Below are positions 5,226 to 38,394 of a stretch of DNA of 39,879 bases, piece by piece (the first letter of the stretch is position 1; each line of letters starts with the position of its first letter). The stretch is taken from positions 775 to 40,653 of the forward strand of contig DFCM01000125.1 in NCBI GenBank assembly GCA_002366995.1, given 5' to 3'. A program made the translations under genes and the position numbers. Below the pieces are notes generated by a model that saw nothing but the letters and a program-made list of their open reading frames with translations, made no database searches and had not been told where the DNA came from. This DNA comes from a bacterium UBP3_UBA3054 (GTDB lineage: Bacteria; Auribacterota; UBA3054).

Positions 5226-5234
5226 ATTATAACA
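5226..5234 (-). promoter_or_regulatory. Candidate extended -10 promoter element (TGTTATAAT) for the 2-hydroxyacid dehydrogenase/GT4/NFACT unit
   Basis: The reverse complement of 5226..5234 is TGTTATAAT, in the 95-nt AT-rich spacer upstream of the ATG at 5171. A second plain TATAAT (reverse complement of 5192..5197) lies 20 nt from the ATG. Confidence 0.4.
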
Positions 5235-17571: not shown

Positions 17572-19644
17572 TTAACCCACCATCAAAGGTGTCTTGGGAT
17601 ATTCTATAGCCGAGCGTTTCCTGGTCGGCAGTAAAAGCAAAAGCGTAAGCGGCCCGATCCTTCCGATGAACATCATGGCGGTGATGATGAGCTTGCCCAT
17701 GACGGAAAGTTTTTCGGTTATGCCCATGGAGAGACCGGTCGTTCCGACGGCGGAGACGGTCTCGAAAAGGATCTCCTCGTAGCCTCCGTTCTCGAAGGTC
17801 AGAAGCAGAATGAAGCCAGTTAAAAACGAGACGTTGTAAAGCATGAAGACCGTGACGGCGCGCCAGACGGTGTTGGCGTTGAAGGAGTGGCGGCCTAACG
17901 TCACGTCGTCGCGGCCCCTAAGCACCGCGAAAAGCAGCGCCAAAAAGATCACCAAAGTCGTCAGCTTGACGCCGCCGGCCGTAGATCCCGGCGCGCCGCC
18001 TACGAACATGAGGATCATGGTCAAAAAGCGGCCGGCGCGGCTCATGTCATTAAGGTCGAAAGTCGAGAAGCCCGCCGTCCTTGCCGTGACGGAGCAGAAG
18101 AGCGCGTTGCAGATCTTCTCCGGCCAGTCGAAATTGGAAAGTCCGCGGGAATGATCCCAAATAAGGAATCCGATCATGCCGCCGAAGACCAGAATGAGCG
18201 TGCCAACTATGACGACGCTGACGTAGAAGTTGGAATGCGGCTTTTTGAAGCGCACGAAATCGCTGATCCAGGAGAGCACGCCGAAGCCCAGGCCGCCGGC
18301 CACGATGAGCGCCGTGAAGGTCAGAAGGATCCAGGGATGATGCTGGAACATCATAAGGCTGTCGGTCTGCAAAGAGAGTCCGCCGTTGCAGAAAGCCGAG
18401 ACAGCGTGGAAGACGCTCTTCCAGAGCGCCACTCTCCATTCCAGACCCATGTGCAGCATCTGCGGGAAAAGGAAAGCAATGCCCACCGCCTCTATGATGA
18501 AGGTCGCTGAGCAGATGAAGATCGTCAGAGGCAGAACGTTCGACTGGCGCTTTTCGCCCAGCATATCCCTGACGAAATATTCCTGCCTCAAGCCTATCGC
18601 CCTGCCAAGTACGAGCGCGCTGAAAGTTGACAAAGTCATGATGCCCAAGCCGCCGACCTGGATAAGGCCCAGGATGACGACCTGACCGCTGAAAGAGAAG
18701 ACCTTCGAGATGTCGACCGTCGCGAGGCCCGTGACGCAGGTGGCGGAAGCCGACATGAAGAGCGCGTCCACCAATCCGATGTCGCAGCCCTTGTTAAGGA
18801 CCCAGGGCAGGGCGAGGAGATACGTTCCCGTAAGGATGACGCCAAGGAAGCTCACGACCAGAAGGAGCGCCGGGTGCTGGAAGAAATAATTGCTGAAGCG
18901 GTCGAAAGCGGCGGAGCGGGCGAAGTAATGGATGAGGACAAGGATCAAAACCGCCATCACGCCAAGAAGGCCCAGCGACCATTCGCCGAAACAGAAAGCC
19001 GCGATCGTAAGAACAAAAGCCGTCAGGATGAAGAAGCAGAATTTCCCCTTGCTGCGCTTGTAAAGGTAAATTTCGCTGCGGAAGCTGCCGTACAAAGCCC
19101 AGAGCCCCAAAATGGAGCTTGTGACAAAAGCCGCGCATCCCATGACGTCCGAGCGGTAAAGCAGCAGGGCGAGCGTAAAGAGCGCCAGCCAGTTCAAGGG
19201 CATGAAGAGCATCGTCCTGGGTCCGAAGACGGGCTTCAGCCAGCGCTTCTCGTTCAAGACGGCCGCTTCCGCGTCAACGTTGGCGCGGTAGAAGTTGAAA
19301 GCCACCCTGAAGGCCAAAAATCCGCAATAGATGGCGGGCGCCAGGCCCAGGAGCCAGCTGCGCCAGTCATTTGTCCAGCAGAAGAAGAGCGGGCTGAAAG
19401 CGAAAGCCAGCAGCCCTCCCAAAAGCAGGGCGCTAAGCGGCCTTTTCCCGGAAAGGAAGAAGGCGCCGGCCAAAAGCAGGACGTTCCCCGCCAATATGGA
19501 AAGGAACAAGGGATCTGTCAGCCTGTTCGTTCCGAAAGCGAAGGATACGAGGAAGACGTTGGCAAAAATCTCCGCCAAAAGCAAAAGCAGGGCGTTCCTG
19601 GTCTCCCTCTGTACCAAGACTTCTTTTACACGGAATATTAGCAT
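17572..19644 (-). CDS. ktrB: K+ transporter KtrB/TrkH family with ~255-aa N-terminal polytopic extension
   Basis: 690 aa. All four selectivity-filter P-loops are present in order: SATCVTGLATVD, AFCNGGLSLQ, TARTAGFSTFD and AVGTTGLSMG. The canonical KtrB core starts near HPALLLVVSFLGVILTG (~residue 257). The preceding region is about 7 predicted hydrophobic helices. Confidence 0.8.
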   Translation of the reverse strand: MLIFRVKEVLVQRETRNALLLLLAEIFANVFLVSFAFGTNRLTDPLFLSILAGNVLLLAGAFFLSGKRPLSALLLGGLLAFAFSPLFFCWTNDWRSWLLGLAPAIYCGFLAFRVAFNFYRANVDAEAAVLNEKRWLKPVFGPRTMLFMPLNWLALFTLALLLYRSDVMGCAAFVTSSILGLWALYGSFRSEIYLYKRSKGKFCFFILTAFVLTIAAFCFGEWSLGLLGVMAVLILVLIHYFARSAAFDRFSNYFFQHPALLLVVSFLGVILTGTYLLALPWVLNKGCDIGLVDALFMSASATCVTGLATVDISKVFSFSGQVVILGLIQVGGLGIMTLSTFSALVLGRAIGLRQEYFVRDMLGEKRQSNVLPLTIFICSATFIIEAVGIAFLFPQMLHMGLEWRVALWKSVFHAVSAFCNGGLSLQTDSLMMFQHHPWILLTFTALIVAGGLGFGVLSWISDFVRFKKPHSNFYVSVVIVGTLILVFGGMIGFLIWDHSRGLSNFDWPEKICNALFCSVTARTAGFSTFDLNDMSRAGRFLTMILMFVGGAPGSTAGGVKLTTLVIFLALLFAVLRGRDDVTLGRHSFNANTVWRAVTVFMLYNVSFLTGFILLLTFENGGYEEILFETVSAVGTTGLSMGITEKLSVMGKLIITAMMFIGRIGPLTLLLLLPTRKRSAIEYPKTPLMVG

Positions 19645-19652
19645 ATTTATAT

Positions 19653-19661
19653 ATTATACCA
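19653..19661 (-). promoter_or_regulatory. Candidate extended -10 promoter (TGGTATAAT) placed 8 nt from the ktrB ATG, predicting a leaderless mRNA
   Basis: The reverse complement of 19653..19661 is TGGTATAAT. Only ATATAAAT separates it from the ATG at 19644, and there is no Shine-Dalgarno. Confidence 0.45.
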
Positions 19662-24003: not shown

Positions 24004-24034
24004 TTGAACCATGAAGGGGCGCTTATGCTATAAT
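24004..24034 (+). promoter_or_regulatory. Sigma70-type promoter for the aminotransferase gene (TTGAAC, 19-nt spacer, extended -10 TGCTATAAT)
   Basis: TTGAAC is at 24004..24009 and TGCTATAAT at 24026..24034. An AGAGAGG Shine-Dalgarno follows, then the ATG at 24061. It sits in the 117-nt divergent spacer shared with pta. Confidence 0.5.
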
Positions 24035-24060: not shown

Positions 24061-25248
24061 ATGATTTCAAGACGCATGCAGAAGATGGTCGCCGCCAATT
24101 CCGTCATCAGGGCAATGTTCGAGGAAGGCCTCAAGCTCGCCAGGGAATACGGCAAGGAAAACGTTTACGATTTCAGCCTGGGCAACCCCAACGTTCCCGC
24201 TCCGGAAGCTTTGAAAAAAGCCGCCCTGAAGATCCTTTCCGAAGACGATCCAGTCAAGGTCCACGGATACATGCCGAACGCCGGCTTCCCTACCGTCAGG
24301 GAAAAGATCGCCCTCTCCCTGAACAAGCGTTTCGGGACCGGATTCACCTCCGCTAACATCCTTATGACCGTCGGCGCGGCCGGCGGCCTCAACGTCGCCC
24401 TCAAGGCGCTTCTCAACCCCGGCGACGAAGTCATCACCTTCGCGCCCTTCTTCGGCGAATACAGAAACTACGTCGCGAACTTCGAGGGCGAACTGGTCGT
24501 CGTCCCTCCCAACACCGAAACTTTCCAGCCCGACCTCAAGTCTTTCAAGGAACTCATCCATCCCCAGACCAAGGCCGTCATAGTAAATTCCCCCAACAAC
24601 CCGACCGGCGTCGTGTACAGCGAGGAGACCGTCAAGCGCCTCGCCGCCATACTTGAGGAGAAGCAGAAGGAATTCGGCACCTCCATCTATCTCATCTCCG
24701 ACGAACCGTACCGCGAGCTCGTCTACGAGGGCGCCCTTGTCCCCTACCTGACCAAATACTACCGCAACACCCTGGTCGGCTACTCTTACAGCAAATCGCT
24801 CTCCATTCCCGGCGAGCGTCTGGGCTACGTGGTCGTCCCCAGTGAAGTCGACGACTTCGAGGATCTCTTCGCCGCCATGACCGTCGCCAACCGCATCCTG
24901 GGCTTCGTCAACGCCCCCAGCCTTATGCAGCTTGCTGTCGCGGAATGCCTGGAGGAAAAGACCGACATCGCCTATTACGCCCGCAACAGGGAAACGCTCT
25001 ACAACGGCCTAACCAAGCTAGGCTTCAAGTGCGTCAAGCCGGAAGGCGCCTTCTATCTCTTCATGAAGACGCCCGTGGAAGACGATTCCGCCTTCGCCCA
25101 GGCCGCCAAGAAATTCAACATCCTTTTGGTCCCGGGAAGCGCTTTCGCATGCCCGGGCTTCGTCAGGATCGCCTACTGCGTTTCCTACGAAACGATCGTG
25201 AATTCGCTTCCCAAGTTCGCGGAACTGGCCAAGCAGTACGGCCTTTAA
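24061..25248 (+). CDS. PLP-dependent aminotransferase, class I (aspartate/alanine aminotransferase-like)
   Basis: 395 aa. FSLGNPNVP, Y..NAGF, NSPNNPTG, and YSYSKSLSIPGERLGY (the PLP Lys in SKS) then R near the C-terminus (VRIAY) fit a class I aminotransferase. Confidence 0.85.
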   Translation: MISRRMQKMVAANSVIRAMFEEGLKLAREYGKENVYDFSLGNPNVPAPEALKKAALKILSEDDPVKVHGYMPNAGFPTVREKIALSLNKRFGTGFTSANILMTVGAAGGLNVALKALLNPGDEVITFAPFFGEYRNYVANFEGELVVVPPNTETFQPDLKSFKELIHPQTKAVIVNSPNNPTGVVYSEETVKRLAAILEEKQKEFGTSIYLISDEPYRELVYEGALVPYLTKYYRNTLVGYSYSKSLSIPGERLGYVVVPSEVDDFEDLFAAMTVANRILGFVNAPSLMQLAVAECLEEKTDIAYYARNRETLYNGLTKLGFKCVKPEGAFYLFMKTPVEDDSAFAQAAKKFNILLVPGSAFACPGFVRIAYCVSYETIVNSLPKFAELAKQYGL

Positions 25249-25898
25249 CGATCGCACCAAGTAATTGGCAACTTGCCGATTGAAACTAGGAATTCGTTGG
25301 CGAGTTTGAAATGACCGCAACCGAAAAATTTTCTGGCGGAAAGCGGCGATGGATGAGCGGATTCCAGGATAAGGTTGCCCTCGGCTTTTATAACATCTTT
25401 CAATTTTCTAGCGTTGTTGCCCCAGAGGAAGAAAACCAACCCTCCCCTTCCGCTCAGTTTGCGCAGTACGCCGGAAGTGAATATTTCCCAGCCTTTGCCG
25501 GCATGGGAATTGGCCTCCCCTTCCCTGACGGTCAAGACCGTGTTCAAAAGCAGGACTCCCTGAGCGGCCCAGTTTCTCAATTCTAGTTTCGGTATTTCCC
25601 GCTCATATTCCATTGAAAGTTCCCGCCGGATATTCCGCAATGAGGGCGGCTCCCGGACACCCTCCGGCACGCTGAAAGCCAAGCCCTCAGCCTGGCCTTC
25701 CTCATGGTAGGGATCTTGTCCTAAAATGACCGCCTTGGTCTCTGTAGGAGAGAAAAAAGAAAAGGCGCGGTACACCTTTTCCTCGGGAGGAAAAACAGCG
25801 TACCGCGCCCGTTCCGCAGCGAGAAACTCTTCCAGTCGAGCGAAGCTTTCGGCCTTCGTCTCCTCAAGAAGAAATTCTCGCCACTTGTCAGGAAGCAT
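25245..25898 (-). CDS. ung: Uracil-DNA glycosylase (family 1)
   Basis: 217 aa. VILGQDPYH (water-activating loop), GVLLLNTVLTV and SAHPSPLSA (Leu-intercalation loop) are the family 1 UDG motifs. Confidence 0.9.
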   Translation of the reverse strand: MLPDKWREFLLEETKAESFARLEEFLAAERARYAVFPPEEKVYRAFSFFSPTETKAVILGQDPYHEEGQAEGLAFSVPEGVREPPSLRNIRRELSMEYEREIPKLELRNWAAQGVLLLNTVLTVREGEANSHAGKGWEIFTSGVLRKLSGRGGLVFFLWGNNARKLKDVIKAEGNLILESAHPSPLSARKFFGCGHFKLANEFLVSIGKLPITWCDR

Positions 25899-26695
25899 TA
25901 CTTCTCTTCGATTATGGCCTTCATGTCCGGATCATTTTCCATGACCCAGCGATAGTGCGCTTGGCGCGTCAGCTTGGCCGCGGCCGCCTCGTCGGCGATG
26001 ATCGTGGCATGCTGATGGAACTGCAGGGCGGAAGAGCTGATAAGGGAGGTCACGGGGCCTTCCACGGCCTTGGCCAGGATCTCAGCCTTGCTGGAGCCAG
26101 TGGCGAGCAAGAGGCAGGCCTTGGCGTCCAGAACGGTGCCGACACCCATCGTCAGGGCGTGAGTCGGAACGTTCTTGGGGTCGCCGCCGAACATTTCGCA
26201 GTTCTGCTCAAGCGTTTCCGCGGAAAGCACGACTTTTCTGGTGCGGGATGAAAGCGGAGACAAAGGCTCGTTGAAGCCGATGTGGCCGTCCACGCCGATG
26301 CCGAGGAGCTGGAGGTCGACGCCGCCCGCTTCCTTCATGGCTTTCTCATAATTGGCGCATTCCTCGACCGCGCATTTGGCCGTGCCGCAGGGAACGTGCG
26401 TGTTGGCCTTGTCGATGTCGATGTGGTCGAAGAGATGGTAGTTCATGTAGTAGCGGTAGGAGTTTTTGTCCGTGCCGGGCAGTCCCCAGTATTCGTCGAG
26501 GTTGAAGGACTTGCAGCCTTTGAAGCTTATGCCTTTTTCCTTGGCGCGCTGGGCTAAGCAGGCGTAGACTCTTTCCATGGTGCGGCCGGTCGCGAGACCA
26601 AGGACCGCGTACGGTTTGCTTTTAACGAGATCGGCGATGATCTTGGCCGTCAGCTGACAGGCGTCTTCCGTCGTTTTGCAAATGATAACTTCCAT
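25898..26695 (-). CDS. nagB: Glucosamine-6-phosphate deaminase
   Basis: 265 aa. LGLATGRTM, FNLDEYWGL, LQLLGIGVDGHIGFNEP and TMGVGTVL are the NagB signatures. Confidence 0.9.
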   Translation of the reverse strand: MEVIICKTTEDACQLTAKIIADLVKSKPYAVLGLATGRTMERVYACLAQRAKEKGISFKGCKSFNLDEYWGLPGTDKNSYRYYMNYHLFDHIDIDKANTHVPCGTAKCAVEECANYEKAMKEAGGVDLQLLGIGVDGHIGFNEPLSPLSSRTRKVVLSAETLEQNCEMFGGDPKNVPTHALTMGVGTVLDAKACLLLATGSSKAEILAKAVEGPVTSLISSSALQFHQHATIIADEAAAAKLTRQAHYRWVMENDPDMKAIIEEK

Positions 26696-26713: not shown

Positions 26714-27565
26714 TTACTTTAAGAGCAGATCCTTGAGGGATTCCTCACTGGAGAGCATTTTGCCTTTTTCGTAGAAGGGCTTGAATTCGCCGTTCTCAAA
26801 CTTCGTGGCGTAGTAGATGGCCGCGAAGGTGAAATCGGGCACCGCGCCGCCCTGGCCGCCGACTATTTCGCCGCCGCGCCTGACATTGTCGATCATCCAG
26901 CCCGGAAGGGAGAGATGATAGGGGTTCCTGCTCACTTCGCCGATATGGAAGGAGATGCCGGTCATCAAGGCCGCCACGTCCTCGGGCTGCAGTTCGCACA
27001 TAAGGTTCGGCTTGTCCATGGCGCCCCAGAATTCCGTTTCCACGAAGGTGCACTTGTAGTTGAGCTGACGGACGGCGTCCTCGACGACGTAGTGCGTGCC
27101 GATATGCGTGCCGTTCCAGTCGCCGGCGTGCGGAACGCCTATTATGGCGGGCTGGTATTTCTCGATGATGCCTTTGATGACATCGACTTTCTTCTGCCAC
27201 TCAGCGGGATTGGCTTCCCTTTCCTTCTTGGTGACGTGCTCGAGCCCGACTCCGGGAACGGAAACTTCCAGGCCGAAATTCATGTATTCGCAAGCGGTCT
27301 TCAGTTCCGCTTCGCGGCCCAACTGGCGGGCTTTGTTGCTGCCTAAAGTAACGGCCACGTCGATGACGTTGCAGCCTTCTTTTCTCAAGCGGAGAGCCCA
27401 GCCGCCGGAGATGCATTCATCGTCCGGGTGCGGAGCGAACCAAAGGACGGTCGGACCGTCGGCGGGAGGCATAGGGAGTTTCTCGAAACCGCCGCAGGGG
27501 AAAGTTCTGCCTTCGGCGAACAGCTTGGCGTACTTCTGCGCCAGGGTAACATACGGGTTTTCCAT
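26714..27565 (-). CDS. PIG-L/LmbE family N-acetylglucosaminyl deacetylase
   Basis: 283 aa. VLWFAPHPDDECISGG is the family metal-binding motif, and there is a second His cluster (PHAGDWNGTHIGTH). Confidence 0.75.
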   Translation of the reverse strand: MENPYVTLAQKYAKLFAEGRTFPCGGFEKLPMPPADGPTVLWFAPHPDDECISGGWALRLRKEGCNVIDVAVTLGSNKARQLGREAELKTACEYMNFGLEVSVPGVGLEHVTKKEREANPAEWQKKVDVIKGIIEKYQPAIIGVPHAGDWNGTHIGTHYVVEDAVRQLNYKCTFVETEFWGAMDKPNLMCELQPEDVAALMTGISFHIGEVSRNPYHLSLPGWMIDNVRRGGEIVGGQGGAVPDFTFAAIYYATKFENGEFKPFYEKGKMLSSEESLKDLLLK

Positions 27566-27595: not shown

Positions 27596-29014
27596 TTATT
27601 CCTGTCCGGGAACGACAGCCAAAGAGGCGGCGGCGATAGCCTGGCCGTGGCGTTTGTCGCGTTCGCTGGGGGTGTGGAAAGCGATCTTCTCGGCGAGTTC
27701 GGGGAACTCGGCCTTCAAGGTTTCCTGCGCCTTCTCAAGGATGATGGCGCCGCCTTCGCCGCTCGTCACGCGGCCGAGGCTCAGGATGTGGCGGATATCG
27801 TAGAAGCTGGCGTAATGCGCCACGCCGTAGCCCATGAAGACGCCGATGGTGTTGTAGATCTTCCTGGCGCGGGCGTCGCCTTCCGCCATCAGCTGCTGCA
27901 CGTATTTCAGTTTTTCAGGCAGCTTCAAGCTTTCGTCGCATTCGATGCCGGCGGGCTTCAGAAGACGACCGACGCACTGCTGGGAGAAATACTGCACGCC
28001 GCAGCCGGCGTCGCCGGACCATTCGTCCTTGGGAGCGCCTTCTCTCACATCCACAGGCGCGAAAGCGAGCTCGTTGAGCCAGGTCGTGATGTTGCCCTGG
28101 GAAGTGCAGTAGCCGACGGCTTCGCTGGAACCAAGCGCGATGCCTAAGACCGCGCCGTCGTTAAGGGAGATGGAGCCGGCAAGCGCCGTCACTTCGCCGT
28201 CGTTCACGACTTCGAAGGGGACCTTCCACTCGTCTCTCAAGCGCAGGAAAACGTCTTTGGCGGCCGCGACCTTGACGGGATCTTTCACCGGAGCGTCCAG
28301 AACGCCGCGGAACAAAGAAGCGACCTTGACGCGGTTGTCAACATAAACGCCGGCCGCGCTGCCGCCGATGGCGTCCACTCTCGGAAGTTTCGCCTTGGCG
28401 GAATTCAGCATGGCCATGAATTCAGAATGGTGCCATTCGGGATCGCTCTGCTTGACAGGATCCCAGACCACTTCCTCGCTGAAGACCACTTCGCCGTCGA
28501 TGACGGCCGCGACTTTGCGGTCGCTGGCGCCGAGGTCGAAACCGATGCGGCAGCCCTTGAAGTGGCGGCCCAGAGGAGCGGTGCTCTCTTTGGGAGCGGG
28601 AAGCTTAGAAGCGTCAGAAACATTCACGACCTCGAAGGGTTTCTCGTAAATGCGGCCGCCCATGATCTCAGCGTCGAAACGGCCAACTTCGGTCTCGGTG
28701 TAATGCTTTCTAAGATAATCGGCCAGGTACGCCGGGCCGGCCACGGTGATGCGGTAGCCGCCGCGGGACCAAAGCAGGAACTTCACCAGCCTTTCGATGA
28801 AGGCCGGATTGTACTTCGCGTAAGCGCTGGTTTCCGGGAAGACTACGGTCTCAAAATGGAAGACCGAGCCGTTGGCCTGTTCCAGGGCGATCGTAACGGG
28901 CACTCCGCCCTCGGCCTTGGCGGCCTGGGTGAAGTTGCGGACAAAGATTGAGGAGGGGGAAAACTCCGGATCAAGTTCCGGGACGATCCTGCCGCCGAAT
29001 AAAGAAGTATTCAT
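27596..29014 (-). CDS. ROK/ASKHA-superfamily sugar kinase-like protein with ~150-aa N-terminal extra domain
   Basis: 472 aa. RIGFDLGASDRKVAAV fits the phosphate-1 motif, and VVNDGEVTALAGS, LGIALGSSEAVGY and CGVQYFSQQC are ROK-like. No clean CxCGxxGC zinc motif is visible. The first ~150 aa are unassigned. Confidence 0.6.
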   Translation of the reverse strand: MNTSLFGGRIVPELDPEFSPSSIFVRNFTQAAKAEGGVPVTIALEQANGSVFHFETVVFPETSAYAKYNPAFIERLVKFLLWSRGGYRITVAGPAYLADYLRKHYTETEVGRFDAEIMGGRIYEKPFEVVNVSDASKLPAPKESTAPLGRHFKGCRIGFDLGASDRKVAAVIDGEVVFSEEVVWDPVKQSDPEWHHSEFMAMLNSAKAKLPRVDAIGGSAAGVYVDNRVKVASLFRGVLDAPVKDPVKVAAAKDVFLRLRDEWKVPFEVVNDGEVTALAGSISLNDGAVLGIALGSSEAVGYCTSQGNITTWLNELAFAPVDVREGAPKDEWSGDAGCGVQYFSQQCVGRLLKPAGIECDESLKLPEKLKYVQQLMAEGDARARKIYNTIGVFMGYGVAHYASFYDIRHILSLGRVTSGEGGAIILEKAQETLKAEFPELAEKIAFHTPSERDKRHGQAIAAASLAVVPGQE

Positions 29015-29078: not shown

Positions 29079-30188
29079 TTAATCCAAAATCTCAACATTT
29101 GCCCTGGGTACTGTTATTATCTTTCCATCCCCCATATCGACACTTAGGACGCGCACCTTGGATCCCGTGCCGATCTCTATAGGCTTCTCTATCAGTTCGT
29201 GCACTCTGCCGATCTGCCCGAAATGCGGGCGGCGGATGAGGCGCACCCTTACTCCGGGCTTCAGCTCGGAATTGTTGACGTGCAGGTCCTCCTTGGTCTC
29301 GTAGCCCGGGACTATGAGTTCCGGCCTGATGACGCCGGCCCTGATCTGGGTGGCGCCGTTGATGGCCGCAATATGACCGTCCAGCGCGCGCAGAAGATGC
29401 GCGGTCCTTTCCGGCATGACAAGGTCGCCGAAGCCTTCCGTCAGGACAAGCGTGAAGGGAATGTCCTCTTCGCCCGTCACGGCCACGCCGATGTCGAAGC
29501 CCAAGAATCCCATCAGTTCGGAATCGACGATGCCGGCGCCCACGATGCCAATAATGCCTTTCTTCTCCGCGGCGTAGAGCACCGAGCCGTCGATCTTCCC
29601 GGGGAACATTATGATCTTTCCCTCAAGATCCTCAGGCAGCATGTCGGCGGTAAGGATCGAGCGTCCGTTGTCGAACCACAGAAGCTTTCCGTGCCTCTCC
29701 CCTCCTACGCCGAAGATGCCCTGCACCAGCGCGCCGTAGGTCTCGATGACCACGCCTTCCTCTTCCATGATCTCGACCACTTCGCCGGAAATGTAGGCGT
29801 GGCAGAAGATCGGTTTCGGCACGCCGCGGACGCCGATGTTGCCGGAGAGTTTGGAAATGTATTCCAAGGACCCGTCTATGGGCGACGTGACGTTGTTGGT
29901 TATGAGGTTGAAGAAGACCGTCCTGCTAGCCAGCAGTTCCTCTTTCTTAACGGGATCGCCGGCCTTTTTCAGGACGAATTTTTCCAACTGGTCTGGTCCG
30001 CAGCCCAAGATGTTCGCGGCTTTCACGACCGCCAGCGTTCCCGGCAGATCGACCTTCGCGACGACCGTCTCGGGCTCGACCTTGTCGCCCAGCTTTACCA
30101 CCACCTCGCCCTTCACAGGCAGGCGGCGCGTTTTTCTTATCTTAACGTGCGGGCTTATCGTAAGCCCCGGAGTAAATGCGTTTCCCAT
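29079..30188 (-). CDS. Conserved-looking hypothetical protein: N-terminal barrel-sandwich-hybrid-like region plus C-terminal KOW/SH3-like barrel
   Basis: 369 aa, translationally packed 3 nt after the upstream ATPase gene. PVKGEVVVKLGDKVEPETVVAKV ... VTSPIDGSLEYIS resembles the two half-motifs of lipoyl/NqrA-RnfC-type hybrid barrels. The C-terminal LKPGVRVRLIRRPHFGQIGRVHEL...KVRVLSVDMGDGKIITVPRANVEIL looks KOW-like. I cannot name a family. Confidence 0.6.
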   Translation of the reverse strand: MGNAFTPGLTISPHVKIRKTRRLPVKGEVVVKLGDKVEPETVVAKVDLPGTLAVVKAANILGCGPDQLEKFVLKKAGDPVKKEELLASRTVFFNLITNNVTSPIDGSLEYISKLSGNIGVRGVPKPIFCHAYISGEVVEIMEEEGVVIETYGALVQGIFGVGGERHGKLLWFDNGRSILTADMLPEDLEGKIIMFPGKIDGSVLYAAEKKGIIGIVGAGIVDSELMGFLGFDIGVAVTGEEDIPFTLVLTEGFGDLVMPERTAHLLRALDGHIAAINGATQIRAGVIRPELIVPGYETKEDLHVNNSELKPGVRVRLIRRPHFGQIGRVHELIEKPIEIGTGSKVRVLSVDMGDGKIITVPRANVEILD

Positions 30189-30191
30189 AAT

Positions 30192-31994
30192 TTATTCCAG
30201 CGGCAGCGAAAGCGCCTTGTAATCTTTAAGCCGGCGGGCGGCGTTCATGGTTTGGTCGTTGTCAAAAACGAGAGGACGGCAGCGGCCGTCCAGCAGTATG
30301 CCGGCCACGCCGCCTATCACTTCGGTCTCCATCGGCTTGCCATAGCCTTTGCCGACGTTGAAGCGCCTGGTCGGGAAGATCTGCACTCTGGCTTTCTTGC
30401 CGGTCGGCAGCGGCACTCTCAGAAGGTCCCCGCTCTTTATGGTTATCTTCTCTTCGCGGTCGTCGATCTTCACCAGCACGTCCATGACCTTCGCGCCTTC
30501 CTTGGCCGTTCCGACCGGCGCGATGGCCGTTCCAAGAACGATCATGCAGTCCTTGGCGAAGACTTCCTTGGCGGCTTCAGGATTCAATTGCGACATGACG
30601 CCCAATTGCGGCATCATGAAAATGGAGTCGACAGCCAGCTGCGTCACGCCTTCCAGCTGGAAAGCGTCCAGCATCATGAGAGCCGACTGCGTTCTGTCGG
30701 GCGCGTGCGAAAGCACGCCGCCGGAACCAATGCAGAGGTCGAGCTTCATGAGGTCGACCAGCACGGACTGGTTATTGTCGAGGGCGGAACCGATGTCGCT
30801 GTCGGCGTCCTTTTGGTTGGCCGCCACGTCGACCGCCAGGGAGCGGTGGTGAATAAGCGAAAGACGCAGGGCTTCTCTGGCCGCGGCCTGCTCGATGTAA
30901 AGCTCTTCTTTCGTTTCCGGGATGGTCGTGGGACGGATCATCTTGTTGCGCAGAATGTCGCGCAGAACTTTCACGTCGAACTTGAAGGGCAGCCAGCGCA
31001 GAATATTGTCCACGCCGCTTTCCGCCATCACGTTGCAGAGGCTGTAGCTCATGCCGTAGTTCGCGGAGACCGTGCGGTGGAAGTGTCCGCCGAAAACCGA
31101 GAAGACGTCCGTCGTGGCGCCGCCGATGTCGACGGCCAGGACGTTCTGGTGCCTTTCCCTGGCGACTTCCTGGATGATGATGCCGACCGCCGTGGGCGTC
31201 GGCATGATGTCCGCGGAAGTGATCTCCATCAGCTTCGGATATCCCGGCGCCTGCTGCATGACGTGCTCCAAAAAGAGGTCGTGGATGGCCTGGCGCGCTT
31301 CCGCCACGTCTTCCCTGTTGAGGTCCGGCCTGACATTGTTGACGTTCCTTATTGAGCACACTCCGCCCAGCATGTCTTCGACCACGTCGCGGGCTTCCAC
31401 GTTGCCGCTGAAGATGACCGGGAGGTTGAAGCCCTGCCCGAACCTTGGCTGGGGCTTGGCGGCCCTTATTATTTCCGAGATCATCTCCACATGCCGGCGG
31501 GATCCGCCGTTGGTGCCGCCCGCCATCAATATCATGTCGGGGCGGATGTGGCGGAGACGTTCTATTCTTTCGTAATTCTCCCTCGGGTCGTCGAGGGAAA
31601 TGGTGTCGATGACGATGGCGCCCGCACCCAGGGCCGCTCTTTCCGCGCTGGCGCCCGAAATAGAGCCTACGATGCCCGTGCAGGCCATTTGCAGACCTCC
31701 CCCGGCTGAAGATGTGGAGAAATAGGCATCCACCCCGTCTTCGCCCTTCCTGGGGCAAATCAGGTTCCTGTTTTCATCCAGAAGCCGGCGGCCGGTGATA
31801 TCCTCCAGCTCCTCGACCGCGTTCTTGACGCCCACCGTCACGTCGTCGAAGGGCGCCTCGACCGTCGTGGGCGCTTCGCCGCGCCCCGCCAGACGGTAGC
31901 CCTCCTCGGTCTTGACGACCAGAATAGCCTTGGTGGTCGTGCTGCCGCAGTCGGTCGCCAACATCACTTCCAGTTTCTCAGTGTCTTTACTCAT
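30192..31994 (-). CDS. GlmL/MutL-family (glutamate-mutase-accessory-like) actin-fold ATPase with C-terminal extension
   Basis: 600 aa. LATDCGSTTTKAILV fits phosphate-1, STSSAGGGLQM and ILMAGGTNGG follow, VLAVDIGGATTDVFSV fits phosphate-2, and IGSGGVLSHAP is also present. This order and spacing match what I recall for the MutL (PF13941) / hydantoinase-like ASKHA branch. About 130 extra C-terminal residues are beta-rich. Confidence 0.6.
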   Translation of the reverse strand: MSKDTEKLEVMLATDCGSTTTKAILVVKTEEGYRLAGRGEAPTTVEAPFDDVTVGVKNAVEELEDITGRRLLDENRNLICPRKGEDGVDAYFSTSSAGGGLQMACTGIVGSISGASAERAALGAGAIVIDTISLDDPRENYERIERLRHIRPDMILMAGGTNGGSRRHVEMISEIIRAAKPQPRFGQGFNLPVIFSGNVEARDVVEDMLGGVCSIRNVNNVRPDLNREDVAEARQAIHDLFLEHVMQQAPGYPKLMEITSADIMPTPTAVGIIIQEVARERHQNVLAVDIGGATTDVFSVFGGHFHRTVSANYGMSYSLCNVMAESGVDNILRWLPFKFDVKVLRDILRNKMIRPTTIPETKEELYIEQAAAREALRLSLIHHRSLAVDVAANQKDADSDIGSALDNNQSVLVDLMKLDLCIGSGGVLSHAPDRTQSALMMLDAFQLEGVTQLAVDSIFMMPQLGVMSQLNPEAAKEVFAKDCMIVLGTAIAPVGTAKEGAKVMDVLVKIDDREEKITIKSGDLLRVPLPTGKKARVQIFPTRRFNVGKGYGKPMETEVIGGVAGILLDGRCRPLVFDNDQTMNAARRLKDYKALSLPLE

Positions 31995-31996
31995 AC

Positions 31997-32266
31997 CTAA
32001 TTGGCCAACTCCTTAATTCTCTCCTCAAGCCTCAGCGTATTGGAATCATCCAGCAAAAAAAGACCAAGGTCCCGCATGTCGAGCGGCATCACCGTGTTCA
32101 GTATCCCCCCGAACCCAATGAGAATGTGGGCGGTGATGGGCGCGATGGGACGGTTGATCTCGAAAAGGAAAGTCGTCGCCGCTGGCAAGTCGTATTTCTT
32201 GCTCCAGTGAGCGATCTTTTCGACGATCTCTTCCGTCTCCTCAACTGTCAAACTGGTCTTTATCAT
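31997..32266 (-). CDS. Small hypothetical protein (89 aa), first gene of the three-gene operon
   Basis: The ORF ends 2 nt before the ATPase ATG. It has an acidic N-terminus (TVEETEEIVEKIAHW) and a central hydrophobic stretch (PIAPITAHILIGFGGILNTVMP). I recognise no family. Confidence 0.55.
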   Translation of the reverse strand: MIKTSLTVEETEEIVEKIAHWSKKYDLPAATTFLFEINRPIAPITAHILIGFGGILNTVMPLDMRDLGLFLLDDSNTLRLEERIKELAN

Positions 32267-32274
32267 ATGAAGAA

Positions 32275-32283
32275 ATTATAGCA
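32275..32283 (-). promoter_or_regulatory. Candidate extended -10 promoter (TGCTATAAT) 8 nt from the ATG of the 89-aa gene, predicting a leaderless mRNA
   Basis: The reverse complement of 32275..32283 is TGCTATAAT, the same 9-mer as at 24026..24034. Only TTCTTCAT separates it from the ATG at 32266, and there is no Shine-Dalgarno. Confidence 0.45.
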
Positions 32284-32309: not shown

Positions 32310-32462
32310 TTATTCCGCGTCGGGATAGACCACGCTCTGCTGGTCGGGATCCCTGAAGATGTGGTTGTTGGGGGCGTCGGCGTCGAGGGAATCCTGCATG
32401 GCGCAGCCGGCTAAGCTTAAAACGAAGAGGATGAGAAGAGAAAGGAAAAGCAGTTTTTTCAT
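32310..32462 (-). CDS. Small lipoprotein (50 aa), below the ORF-track length cut-off
   Basis: My translation of the minus strand gives MKKLLFLSLLILFVLSLAGCAMQDSLDADAPNNHIFRDPDQQSVVYPDAE*. It has a basic n-region, a hydrophobic core and a canonical lipobox L-A-G-C. The ATG lies 10 nt after the YfhO-like stop and is preceded by GAGGAAAAAACC. Confidence 0.6.
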   Translation of the reverse strand: MKKLLFLSLLILFVLSLAGCAMQDSLDADAPNNHIFRDPDQQSVVYPDAE

Positions 32463-38317: not shown

Positions 38318-38394
38318 TGGTCGGAGCGACTGGATTTGAACCAGCGACCACTTGACCCCCAGTCAAGTGCGCTACCAGGCTGCGCTACGCTCCG
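38318..38394 (-). tRNA. tRNA-Pro (anticodon GGG), CCA encoded
   Basis: The hand-folded 77-nt cloverleaf is CGGAGCG-TA-GCGC-AGCCTGGTA-GCGC-A-CTTGA-CTGGGGG-TCAAG-TGGTC-GCTGG-TTCAAAT-CCAGT-CGCTCCG-A-CCA. The 7-bp acceptor stem is perfect, and the D, anticodon and T stems all pair. GGG is centred in the 7-nt anticodon loop, with G37. Confidence 0.95.

Follow-up and report, generated by a model that had tools for sequence, protein, structure and literature searches.

GlmL and Or-4 are ASKHA ATPases of the Pfam family MutL (PF13941) that consist of a single domain of about 450 to 460 amino acids, and the gene for GlmL is located beside the genes for the mutase subunits. A large ASKHA ATPase is also combined with one or more smaller partners in the DdrA/DdrB and EutA reactivases, and in the HyuA/HyuB-type enzymes a large ASKHA subunit is accompanied by a conserved second subunit, with or without a small subunit. 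Enzymes of the hydantoinase and acetone carboxylase type are soluble and are not known to be linked to a membrane module. In the PilM-PilN-PilO, FtsA-FtsN, and MreB-MreC-MreD systems, an ASKHA protein is found beside two-helix and small polytopic membrane proteins. Here, we describe a MutL-type gene in a stretch of 39,879 nucleotides from the bacterium UBP3_UBA3054 of the Auribacterota (contig DFCM01000125.1, positions 775 to 40,653; the whole stretch is referred to as the window), where it is located between the genes for a small protein and a partner protein. The 3 proteins, of 89, 600, and 369 amino acids, are here called p89, p600, and p369 (Table 1).

The p600 protein is assigned to the Pfam family of GlmL and Or-4, contains the same ASKHA core and has the ATP motifs in the same order, but it contains 600 amino acids, including an additional conserved β-rich domain of about 117 amino acids. 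Unlike GlmL, which is encoded next to a mutase, p600 had no gene for a B12 mutase nearby in the sampled genomes and was instead paired with p369, to which it was fused in 2 lineages, and linked to p89 and to 4 membrane proteins. Our best reading of these data is that the trio represents the cytoplasmic core of a widespread and undescribed multi-protein system of about 7 genes. The system was rated as outside the known kinds since p600 lacks the defining features of GlmL and Or-4 that were compared (the curated score, the mutase neighborhood, and the size and architecture) and no described system has this composition, an assessment that draws on comparative genomics and on predicted structures from shallow alignments (21 to 24 sequences) and should be taken as provisional.

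Conservation and synteny of the ATPase and its partner

The open reading frame (ORF) coordinates reproduced the 3-gene layout described in the initial annotation, with gaps of 2 nucleotides between p89 and p600 and of 3 nucleotides between p600 and p369. The gene for p369 is followed by an AT-rich spacer of 64 nucleotides, and the trio looks like a separate transcription unit. The proteins in the window were 98% identical to those of a metagenome-assembled genome from yak rumen, "Bacterium isolate RGIG10100" (locus L001).

Relatives of p369 formed at least 7,983 clusters at 90% identity and were represented by 3,446 sequences at 50% identity, 1,077 of which had E-values of 1e-30 or lower. More than 586 carriers of p369 were identified in a scan of species-representative genomes, and the best 80 loci were selected for analysis. 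These included loci from Armatimonadota, Bacillota, Zixibacteria, Ignavibacteria, WOR-3, Hydrothermae, Poribacteria, Abditibacteria, and Myxococcota, as well as from 12 archaeal genomes (Bathyarchaeia, Korarchaeia, Culexarchaeia, Methanomethylicia, and others). The amino acid sequence identity of p369 was about 45% to 50% across Armatimonadota, Bacillota, Zixibacteria, WOR-3, Ignavibacteria, and the TACK archaea. In a neighbor-joining tree, the p369 proteins followed the phyla and the archaeal sequences formed a single clade, which indicates that the gene is old and has mostly been inherited vertically. No relatives were identified on viral contigs in IMG/VR or on plasmids in PLSDB, nor was there a match to the defense models in PADLOC. 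The system is thus ancient and chromosomal rather than mobile.

Mapping with hidden Markov models (HMMs) placed a gene for the ATPase within 7 kb of the p369 gene in 47 of the 80 species-level loci, including all 12 archaeal loci. The linked ATPase gene was usually located immediately upstream of the p369 gene on the same strand, often with touching or overlapping ORFs. The synteny of the trio, which extends across many phyla and into the archaea, is far beyond what is expected by chance, and the adjacency and translational coupling of the 2 genes show that p369 is a dedicated partner of p600. Furthermore, 2 representative proteins contained p369 fused to the ATPase, P0270 (995 amino acids) and P0352 (1003 amino acids). 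The P0270 fusion has a mature linker and its gene is followed by the genes for a DUF6754 protein and 2 more membrane proteins, while the P0352 gene is preceded by genes for proteins of 219 and 87 amino acids. The P0352 protein retains the internal methionine of p369, so this fusion may represent a recent loss of a stop codon or an assembly error.

It was also noted that 8 loci contained 2 ATPase/p369 pairs located side by side, 7 of which were from Bacillota (L007, L019, L021, L031, L033, L034, and L065) and one from Bathyarchaeota (L076). In the Bacillota loci, one of the pairs contained a longer p369 paralog of about 450 amino acids, which formed a separate deep branch in the tree.

A module of 4 membrane proteins is linked to the trio

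The initial annotation considered the 3 genes as a unit. The trio itself was borne out, whereas as a complete unit it was too small, since 4 membrane proteins are included in many genomes. The complete block of 4 membrane genes was identified in 17 of the 80 loci, and in another 4 loci it was clipped by the locus ends. The order of the genes was constant, with the gene for the DUF6754 protein followed by genes for a polytopic protein of about 215 amino acids, a two-helix protein of about 280 amino acids and a second polytopic protein of about 215 amino acids. The canonical operon thus consists of the genes for the small protein, the ATPase, and p369, and thereafter the 4 membrane genes. All 7 genes were found in one operon in 5 loci, L002 (from Lac Pavin, the closest relative outside the species), L022, L055, L085, and L086. 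Taken together, the trio is co-operonic with the 4 membrane genes in numerous other bacteria as well as in TACK archaea. In 2 loci, L014 and L015, p369 was located beside the membrane block without the ATPase. A survey of the 149 immediate neighbors of the ATPase/p369 pair in 47 sampled related genomes identified DUF6754 as the only family that recurred across lineages.

The distribution of charged residues was used to predict the topology of the two-helix proteins. In the DUF6754 protein, 53 lysine and arginine residues were located after helix 1 and 23 before it, and according to the positive-inside rule the conserved domain of about 200 amino acids is probably cytoplasmic. In the other two-helix protein, the tails contained 42 and 60 such residues compared to 15 and 28 on the domain side, which places its soluble domain, most likely, outside the cell. 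These counts suggest that conserved domains of the module face both the cytoplasm and the outside of the cell. The 4 membrane families had no relative in the PDB by sequence or profile searches, and 3 of them, as well as a further family here called C7, had no consistent match in Pfam even at an E-value of 0.1. Comparisons with hhalign gave no indication that the 2 two-helix proteins are paralogs, nor that the 2 polytopic proteins are. No riboswitch or other RNA element was identified with Rfam in 10 loci with the full operon.

The C7 family consists of proteins of about 150 to 230 amino acids with 2 membrane helices and a C-terminal soluble domain. The genes were found in 10 loci (L007, L019, L030, L031, L034, L040, L052, L066, L067, and L073), often immediately before the p89-family gene or, in loci with 2 pairs, before the first of the ATPase genes, and C7 may be an eighth component of the system. 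In 2 Zixibacteria loci (L066, 8504-15122; L073, 8506-15122), a single ATPase/p369 pair was followed by 2 tandem copies of the membrane block. Another 6 loci from the Ignavibacteria/FCB group (L039, L051, L053, L057, L061, and L075) contained a gene inserted between those for the ATPase and p369. The inserted gene encodes a protein of about 260 amino acids with an N-terminus that resembles a signal peptide and a C-terminal membrane helix, without a Pfam family, and in most of these loci ExbB/ExbD-type genes were located after p369.

The p600 protein is a distinct member of the MutL family

The p600 protein matched the Pfam MutL family with an E-value of 2.5e-112 and a score of 376.4 bits (cut-off 27). 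In the curated NCBIfam models (NF040745, NF040744, and TIGR01319), its scores were however far below the cut-offs for GlmL (199.4 versus 475 bits) and Or-4 (180 versus 600 bits), and also below that of the glmL_fam subfamily TIGR01319 (156.2 versus 204 bits). The alignments covered the full length of these profiles (448 to 459 positions) but only residues 11 to 481 of p600. The homologs of p600 carry the labels "glutamate mutase L", "methylaspartate mutase", and "TIGR01319 family" in public databases, all of which derive from homology only. The p600 protein represents a distinct MutL subfamily with its own C-terminal domain.

All 5 ASKHA motifs that had been assigned to p600 as typical of the GlmL/MutL family were confirmed (DCGSTTTK, SSAGGGLQM, LMAGGTNGG, VDIGGATTD, and GSGGVLSH). 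The phosphate-1 (D15-K22), phosphate-2 (D289-D296), and adenosine (G423-G426) motifs were invariant across 24 homologs, and p600 should therefore bind and hydrolyze ATP as an ASKHA ATPase with intact predicted catalytic motifs. The invariant residues also include 2 cysteines, C16 and C483, and an Fe-S cluster was considered. This idea was dropped, as 2 cysteines are insufficient and one of them is located inside the phosphate-1 motif.

The model of p600 inferred with AlphaFold2 had a mean pLDDT of 81. The C-terminal extension, which was previously estimated at about 130 amino acids, corresponds to a tail of 117 residues past the MutL domain that was confidently modeled, with pLDDT values of 87 to 97 over residues 491 to 600, strands in residues 484 to 569 and a helix in residues 581 to 594. 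The domain has been retained in both bacteria and archaea, in that nearly all full-length tblastn matches reached residue 575 to 600, approximately. Searches of the PDB by sequence and profile gave nothing meaningful for p600. A Foldseek search with the model yielded 345 PDB matches at an E-value of 1e-3 or lower, and the 50 matches listed were all ASKHA proteins. The best were an N-methylhydantoinase (9h03), an acetophenone carboxylase (5l9w), and acetone carboxylases (5m45, 5svc), which with hydantoinase/oxoprolinase represent the closest solved structures, and further matches included Hsp70s, PilM, FtsA, and acetate and butyrate kinases. The TM-scores were low throughout.

A search of the literature for DUF6754, PF13941, TIGR01319, and GlmL-like proteins returned nothing relevant. 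One candidate, a "new actin-like family" (PMC12645912), was found to be a ParM-like protein that is unrelated to p600.

The partner proteins p369 and p89

No Pfam or NCBIfam family matched p369 above the cut-off, and no relative was identified in the PDB by sequence. Both it and p89 had been described in the initial annotation as impossible to place in a known family, and this still holds after searches of Pfam, NCBIfam, PADLOC, and the PDB, which assigned neither protein to a characterized pathway. The family is nevertheless highly conserved, with a mean column identity of 66% over 21 diverse members. The alignment of these sequences contained the invariant motifs QGIFGVGGE, IGVA.TG.E, TEGFG, NG.TQIRAGVIRPE, and PR.N.EI as well as an invariant N-terminal peptide (M1, A4, and T6-P7-G8-L9), which is flexible in the model (pLDDT below 50). 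No histidine or cysteine was invariant.

The AlphaFold2 model of p369 had a mean pLDDT of 86 and was divided into 3 parts (Table 1). The first part was modeled as a barrel-sandwich hybrid, a fold that was also indicated by Foldseek matches of the hybrid-barrel type. Homologs of p369 passed the cut-offs for RnfC_N (30.2 versus 25.6 bits), NQRA_N (26.4 versus 25 bits), and Biotin_lipoyl, whereas the p369 protein in the window had a score of 15.7 bits for Biotin_lipoyl, below the cut-off of 22.1. These matches agree with the hybrid barrel previously proposed for p369, and the 2 motifs quoted in that context, GEVVVKLGDKVEPETVVAKV and VTSPIDGSLEYI, were both present. RnfC and NqrA have an N-terminal barrel-sandwich hybrid of the kind that the profiles detected in the p369 homologs and are likewise soluble proteins associated with small membrane subunits, but any resemblance of p369 to them is confined to this first domain. 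The p369 protein lacks a NuoF-like FMN/NADH domain and Fe-S motifs, none of its cysteines is invariant, and Pfam gave no match to the Rossmann and ubiquitin-like domains of NqrA. The membrane neighbors of p369 matched no Rnf or Nqr family, and no Rnf or Nqr subunit was found among the top 50 listed Foldseek matches. The lipoyl and biotinyl carriers differ from p369 in that they have a modifiable lysine at the hairpin tip, which is not conserved in p369: residues 25 to 120 contained no invariant or nearly invariant lysine in the 21 sequences, and K45 varied between lysine, arginine, and glutamine.

The second part includes a modeled alpha/beta domain that contained most of the invariant motifs and had block pLDDT values that were mostly between 86 and 95. 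The invariant glycine, glutamate, aspartate, and arginine motifs were found in the loops that connect its modeled strands and helices. There was no match to residues 125 to 294, approximately, among the PDB matches listed by Foldseek. A KOW-like C-terminal barrel had also been proposed, and Foldseek identified local matches of the third part to the KOW domains of Spt5, NusG, and the ribosomal proteins eS4 and eL26. The model of the whole protein had no global match in Foldseek, with TM-scores of at most 0.16.

A few loci contained genes with a curious relation to the lipoyl-like first domain of p369. Glycine cleavage genes (GcvT, GcvH, and GcvP) were located directly upstream of the operon in L086 (4103-8586), a GcvP subunit gene was located close upstream in L085 (6072-7547), and a lipoate-protein ligase gene was found near the system in L085 (18159-18399) and L024 (2966-3193). 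An association with glycine cleavage or lipoate ligation was considered and dropped; it was seen in only 3 loci.

With 14 acidic residues against 9 basic ones and a hydrophobic center, p89 agrees with its earlier description as an acidic protein with a hydrophobic core. It was matched with an E-value of 1.8e-9 by an HMM that was derived from small ORFs preceding the ATPase gene in other phyla. Proteins of this unannotated family, referred to as C6, contain roughly 90 to 170 amino acids and share the core ...PA..FLE..KP...IG.Q...FF.P..., which is followed by a C-terminal helix. After iteration of the HMM, members were identified in 24 of the 80 loci, 7 of which were archaeal, and in these 24 loci the gene adjoined either the ATPase or the membrane genes. 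In 2 additional phyla that were reached through this family, Edwardsbacteria (L085) and Eisenbacteria (L086), the gene immediately preceded that for the MutL-type protein. A profile search yielded 643 clusters, none of which had a meaningful name or a Pfam domain.

Genes for B12-dependent enzymes are not found near the locus

The initial annotation noted the lack of a B12-dependent or radical enzyme in the window. We scanned about 35 of the larger ORFs in the window, for which the best 25 of 31 families were listed in one of the scans, and no B12-binding, mutase, or radical-SAM family was found among the matches listed. Likewise, none of the B12-binding, mutase E, MM_CoA_mutase, and diol-dehydratase families was listed among the 149 immediate neighbors of the pair in the 47 genomes, and no B12 or radical mutase recurred among these neighbors. 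We consider it highly probable that the trio is a conserved module that is unconnected to B12 mutases. The suggestion that it represents an uncharacterized module was both supported and extended, in that the profile searches, the survey of neighbors, and the synteny, each of which had been named as a possible refutation, all came out in its favor. The loose analogy to the DdrA/DdrB reactivase gained no support, in that neither p369 nor p89 had detectable homology to DdrB in the Pfam and PDB sequence searches, and no client enzyme was listed near p600 in the sampled lineages, in which respect p600 also differs from EutA.

Possible functions of the system

We tentatively favor, at slightly less than even confidence, the interpretation that p600, p369, and p89 form a complex that docks on the membrane module and goes through an ATP-driven conformational cycle for transport or assembly. 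The docking site would be the cytoplasmic DUF6754 domain, and the membrane module would be cycled between conformations by the binding and hydrolysis of ATP. In this way a substrate, perhaps an envelope component, would be transported or assembled in or across the membrane. The p600 protein would not act as an accessory protein of a B12 mutase. A bolder version, in which the 7 components form a single machine in many bacterial phyla and TACK archaea, with membrane transport or assembly energized by an ASKHA ATPase rather than by a P-loop or P-type ATPase, and with the fused or coupled p369 and a small adaptor protein assisting the ATPase, is in our opinion rather doubtful. Several observations weigh against the docking of the trio on the membrane module. 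Gene neighborhood indicates a functional link and not physical docking, and the membrane genes could encode the substrate transporter of a soluble enzyme. To our knowledge, there is no membrane transporter or assembly machine that is powered by an ASKHA ATPase, and the nearest structural relatives of p600 are the soluble hydantoinase and acetone and acetophenone carboxylases. The HMMs of the 4 membrane families matched nothing in the window, which seems to carry the soluble trio only, so that the membrane genes must presumably be located elsewhere in the genome or have been lost. Both fusions are from metagenome assemblies, and a sequencing error or the loss of a stop codon is possible for one of them. 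Finally, the genes for the ATPase and p369 are unlinked single genes in the Armatimonadota.

The trio may alternatively encode a soluble multi-subunit ATP-dependent enzyme, similar to hydantoinase/oxoprolinase or acetone carboxylase, in which the ASKHA subunit phosphorylates a small substrate, the partner subunit completes the reaction and the membrane proteins serve as the cognate transporter, although we think this unlikely. The best Foldseek matches of p600 (9h03, 5l9w, 5m45, and 5svc) point in this direction, albeit with TM-scores of 0.14 to 0.32 to HyuA-type structures, and the combination of a large, a medium, and a small subunit echoes the alpha/beta/gamma layout of acetone carboxylase and resembles that of the HyuA/HyuB-type enzymes. 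The match of p600 to the Pfam family Hydantoinase_A was weak and below the cut-off (20.1 versus 22.9 bits), and neither p369 nor p89 matched Hydantoinase_B. The invariant loop motifs in the alpha/beta domain of p369 are enzyme-like, but the protein belongs to no detectable catalytic family. Genes for amidohydrolase, creatininase-family, TldD/PmbA, peptidase S58, and DAO proteins were located beside the pair in several lineages, but these metabolic neighbors were lineage-specific, with 3 to 4 of the 149 neighbors each, and do not represent a single pathway. A transporter that consists of 4 unrelated and unannotated membrane proteins would also be unusual. A link to the catabolism of creatinine or hydantoin was unsupported, as the creatininase-family, amidohydrolase, and DAO genes were found in related genomes only.

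Another reading is that p600 serves as an actin-like scaffold tethered to the membrane, similar to PilM/PilN/PilO, FtsA/FtsN, or MreB/MreC/MreD. Such a scaffold would organize the membrane proteins, for example during envelope growth, and ATP would control the assembly without doing work on a substrate. We regard this as quite improbable. PilM and FtsA were among the Foldseek matches of p600 with the highest target-normalized TM-scores (0.43 to 0.46), and the membrane proteins of the system, which comprise small polytopic proteins and two-helix proteins with a soluble domain, form the same cast as in MreC/MreD or PilN/PilO. The invariant peptide that is modeled as flexible at the N-terminus of p369 could dock onto p600 as the N-terminus of PilN does on PilM, and envelope genes such as those for YfhO, Wzx-like, Wzz, CdsA, ExbB/ExbD, and TolB proteins were found near some of the loci. 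These envelope neighbors were however sporadic, and by its sequence p600 belongs to the MutL/hydantoinase branch and not to the actin, MreB, FtsA, or PilM families, from which it also differs by its fully conserved catalytic site and by having p369 and p89 as partners. The prospects are poorer still for p600 as a chaperone or reactivase of the GlmL, EutA, or DdrA type. In that role it would spend ATP on repairing or loading the cofactor of an enzyme whose gene is located elsewhere in the genome, and p369 and p89 would be adaptors. The assignment of p600 to the Pfam family of GlmL and Or-4, the end-to-end profile alignment, the name "glutamate mutase L" given to its homologs in the source databases and the Hsp70-type nucleotide-binding domains among the Foldseek matches are consistent with this role. 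Against it stand scores that do not come near the equivalog cut-offs for GlmL and Or-4, the lack of B12, mutase, and diol-dehydratase families among the 149 neighbors and the scanned ORFs of the window, the constant partnership of p600 with p369 and membrane proteins, and the lack of an invariant histidine or cysteine in p369 for cofactor binding.

Irrespective of its function, the system comprises at least 6 protein families that are conserved together across bacteria and archaea and have largely been inherited vertically, with thousands of sequence clusters in the p369 family alone. Pfam covers only 2 of the families, MutL and DUF6754, and the families have no described function, no solved structure that is detectable by sequence and no paper in the literature searched. 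The labels "glutamate mutase L" and "methylaspartate mutase", which are the only functional ones given in public databases, appear to be wrong for the p600 subfamily and are being propagated. Should the ATPase act on the membrane module, a membrane process would be coupled to ATP in a new way, and a 7-part machine would represent a new class of energized membrane system, made up almost entirely of unannotated families. A soluble enzyme with its own transporter would on the other hand correspond to an unrecognized and widespread metabolic step. With a defined list of parts, natural fusions, and conserved motifs, the system is directly testable.

Promoter and surrounding genes

As previously suggested, the trio is preceded by a perfect extended -10 element in a position that indicates a leaderless transcript (Table 1). 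No Shine-Dalgarno sequence was seen before the ATG codon of the p89 gene, and a sigma-70 scan reported no match to a -35 element for this promoter. The window contained 4 perfect TGnTATAAT sites compared to 0.12 expected by chance, and all 4 were located upstream of a correctly oriented gene. One of these, before a TrkH-like gene that starts at position 19644, had a spacing of 8 nucleotides to the ATG codon, identical to that of the p89 site. Given the number of sites, their orientation and the repeated spacing, the leaderless geometry seems to represent a genuine type of promoter in this organism, and the pattern suggests that leaderless mRNAs may be frequent.

Table 1. Coordinates of the trio, its protein domains, and other features in the window.
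Feature	Position	Strand	Basis or remark
p89	32266..31997	minus	89 aa, ORF scan
p600	31994..30192	minus	600 aa, ORF scan
p600 residues 12-483, MutL/ASKHA nucleotide-binding core	30546..31961	minus	Pfam envelope
p600 residues 484-600, β-rich C-terminal domain and terminal helix	30195..30545	minus	AlphaFold2 model
p369	30188..29079	minus	369 aa, ORF scan
p369 residues ~11-122, barrel-sandwich hybrid (lipoyl/RnfC_N/NqrA_N-like)	29823..30158	minus	AlphaFold2 strands
p369 residues ~125-294, β-barrel followed by Rossmann-like alpha/beta domain	29307..29816	minus	AlphaFold2 model
p369 residues ~314-368, KOW/SH3-like C-terminal barrel	29085..29249	minus	Local Foldseek matches
Extended -10 element TGCTATAAT	32283..32275	minus	Ends 8 nt upstream of p89 ATG
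Perfect TGnTATAAT site	5226-5234	minus	
Perfect TGnTATAAT site	19653-19661	minus	
Perfect TGnTATAAT site	24026-24034	plus	
Perfect TGnTATAAT site	32275-32283	minus	
50-aa ORF (MKKLLFLSLLILFVLSLAGCAMQ...)	32310-32462	minus	Lipoprotein-type signal peptide and lipobox
472-aa protein	27596-29014	minus	Directly downstream of the trio; sugar-kinase/ROK-like ASKHA motifs
PIG-L deacetylase	26714-27565		After the gene for the 472-aa protein
Glucosamine-6-phosphate isomerase-like gene (Glucosamine_iso, NagB-like)	25898-26695	minus	
Uracil-DNA glycosylase family gene	25245-25898	minus	A few genes downstream of p369
tRNA gene	38321-38394	minus	Rfam RF00005, 64 bits; sole Rfam match in the window

The short ORF upstream of the trio is located between a YfhO-like gene and the trio promoter, and is followed by a weak terminator-like hairpin at 32306-32294. 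The remaining ORFs that were scanned in the window represent housekeeping, polysaccharide synthesis, and amino-sugar genes. The 472-amino acid protein contains the motifs GFDLGASD..., VVNDGEVTALAG, and GIALGSS, and had no match in Pfam, NCBIfam, or PDB sequence searches. Together with the PIG-L deacetylase and the glucosamine-6-phosphate isomerase-like gene, it looks like an amino-sugar catabolic set.

A Glucosamine_iso gene was also located immediately upstream of the p369 homolog in 2 Armatimonadota loci (L004, 6122-6934; L015, 6187-6984). The proximity to p369 may be due to chance since it was seen in only 3 of the 80 loci. As in the window, a gene of the uracil-DNA glycosylase family was found downstream of p369 in several Bacillota loci, for example in L007 (9251-9985).

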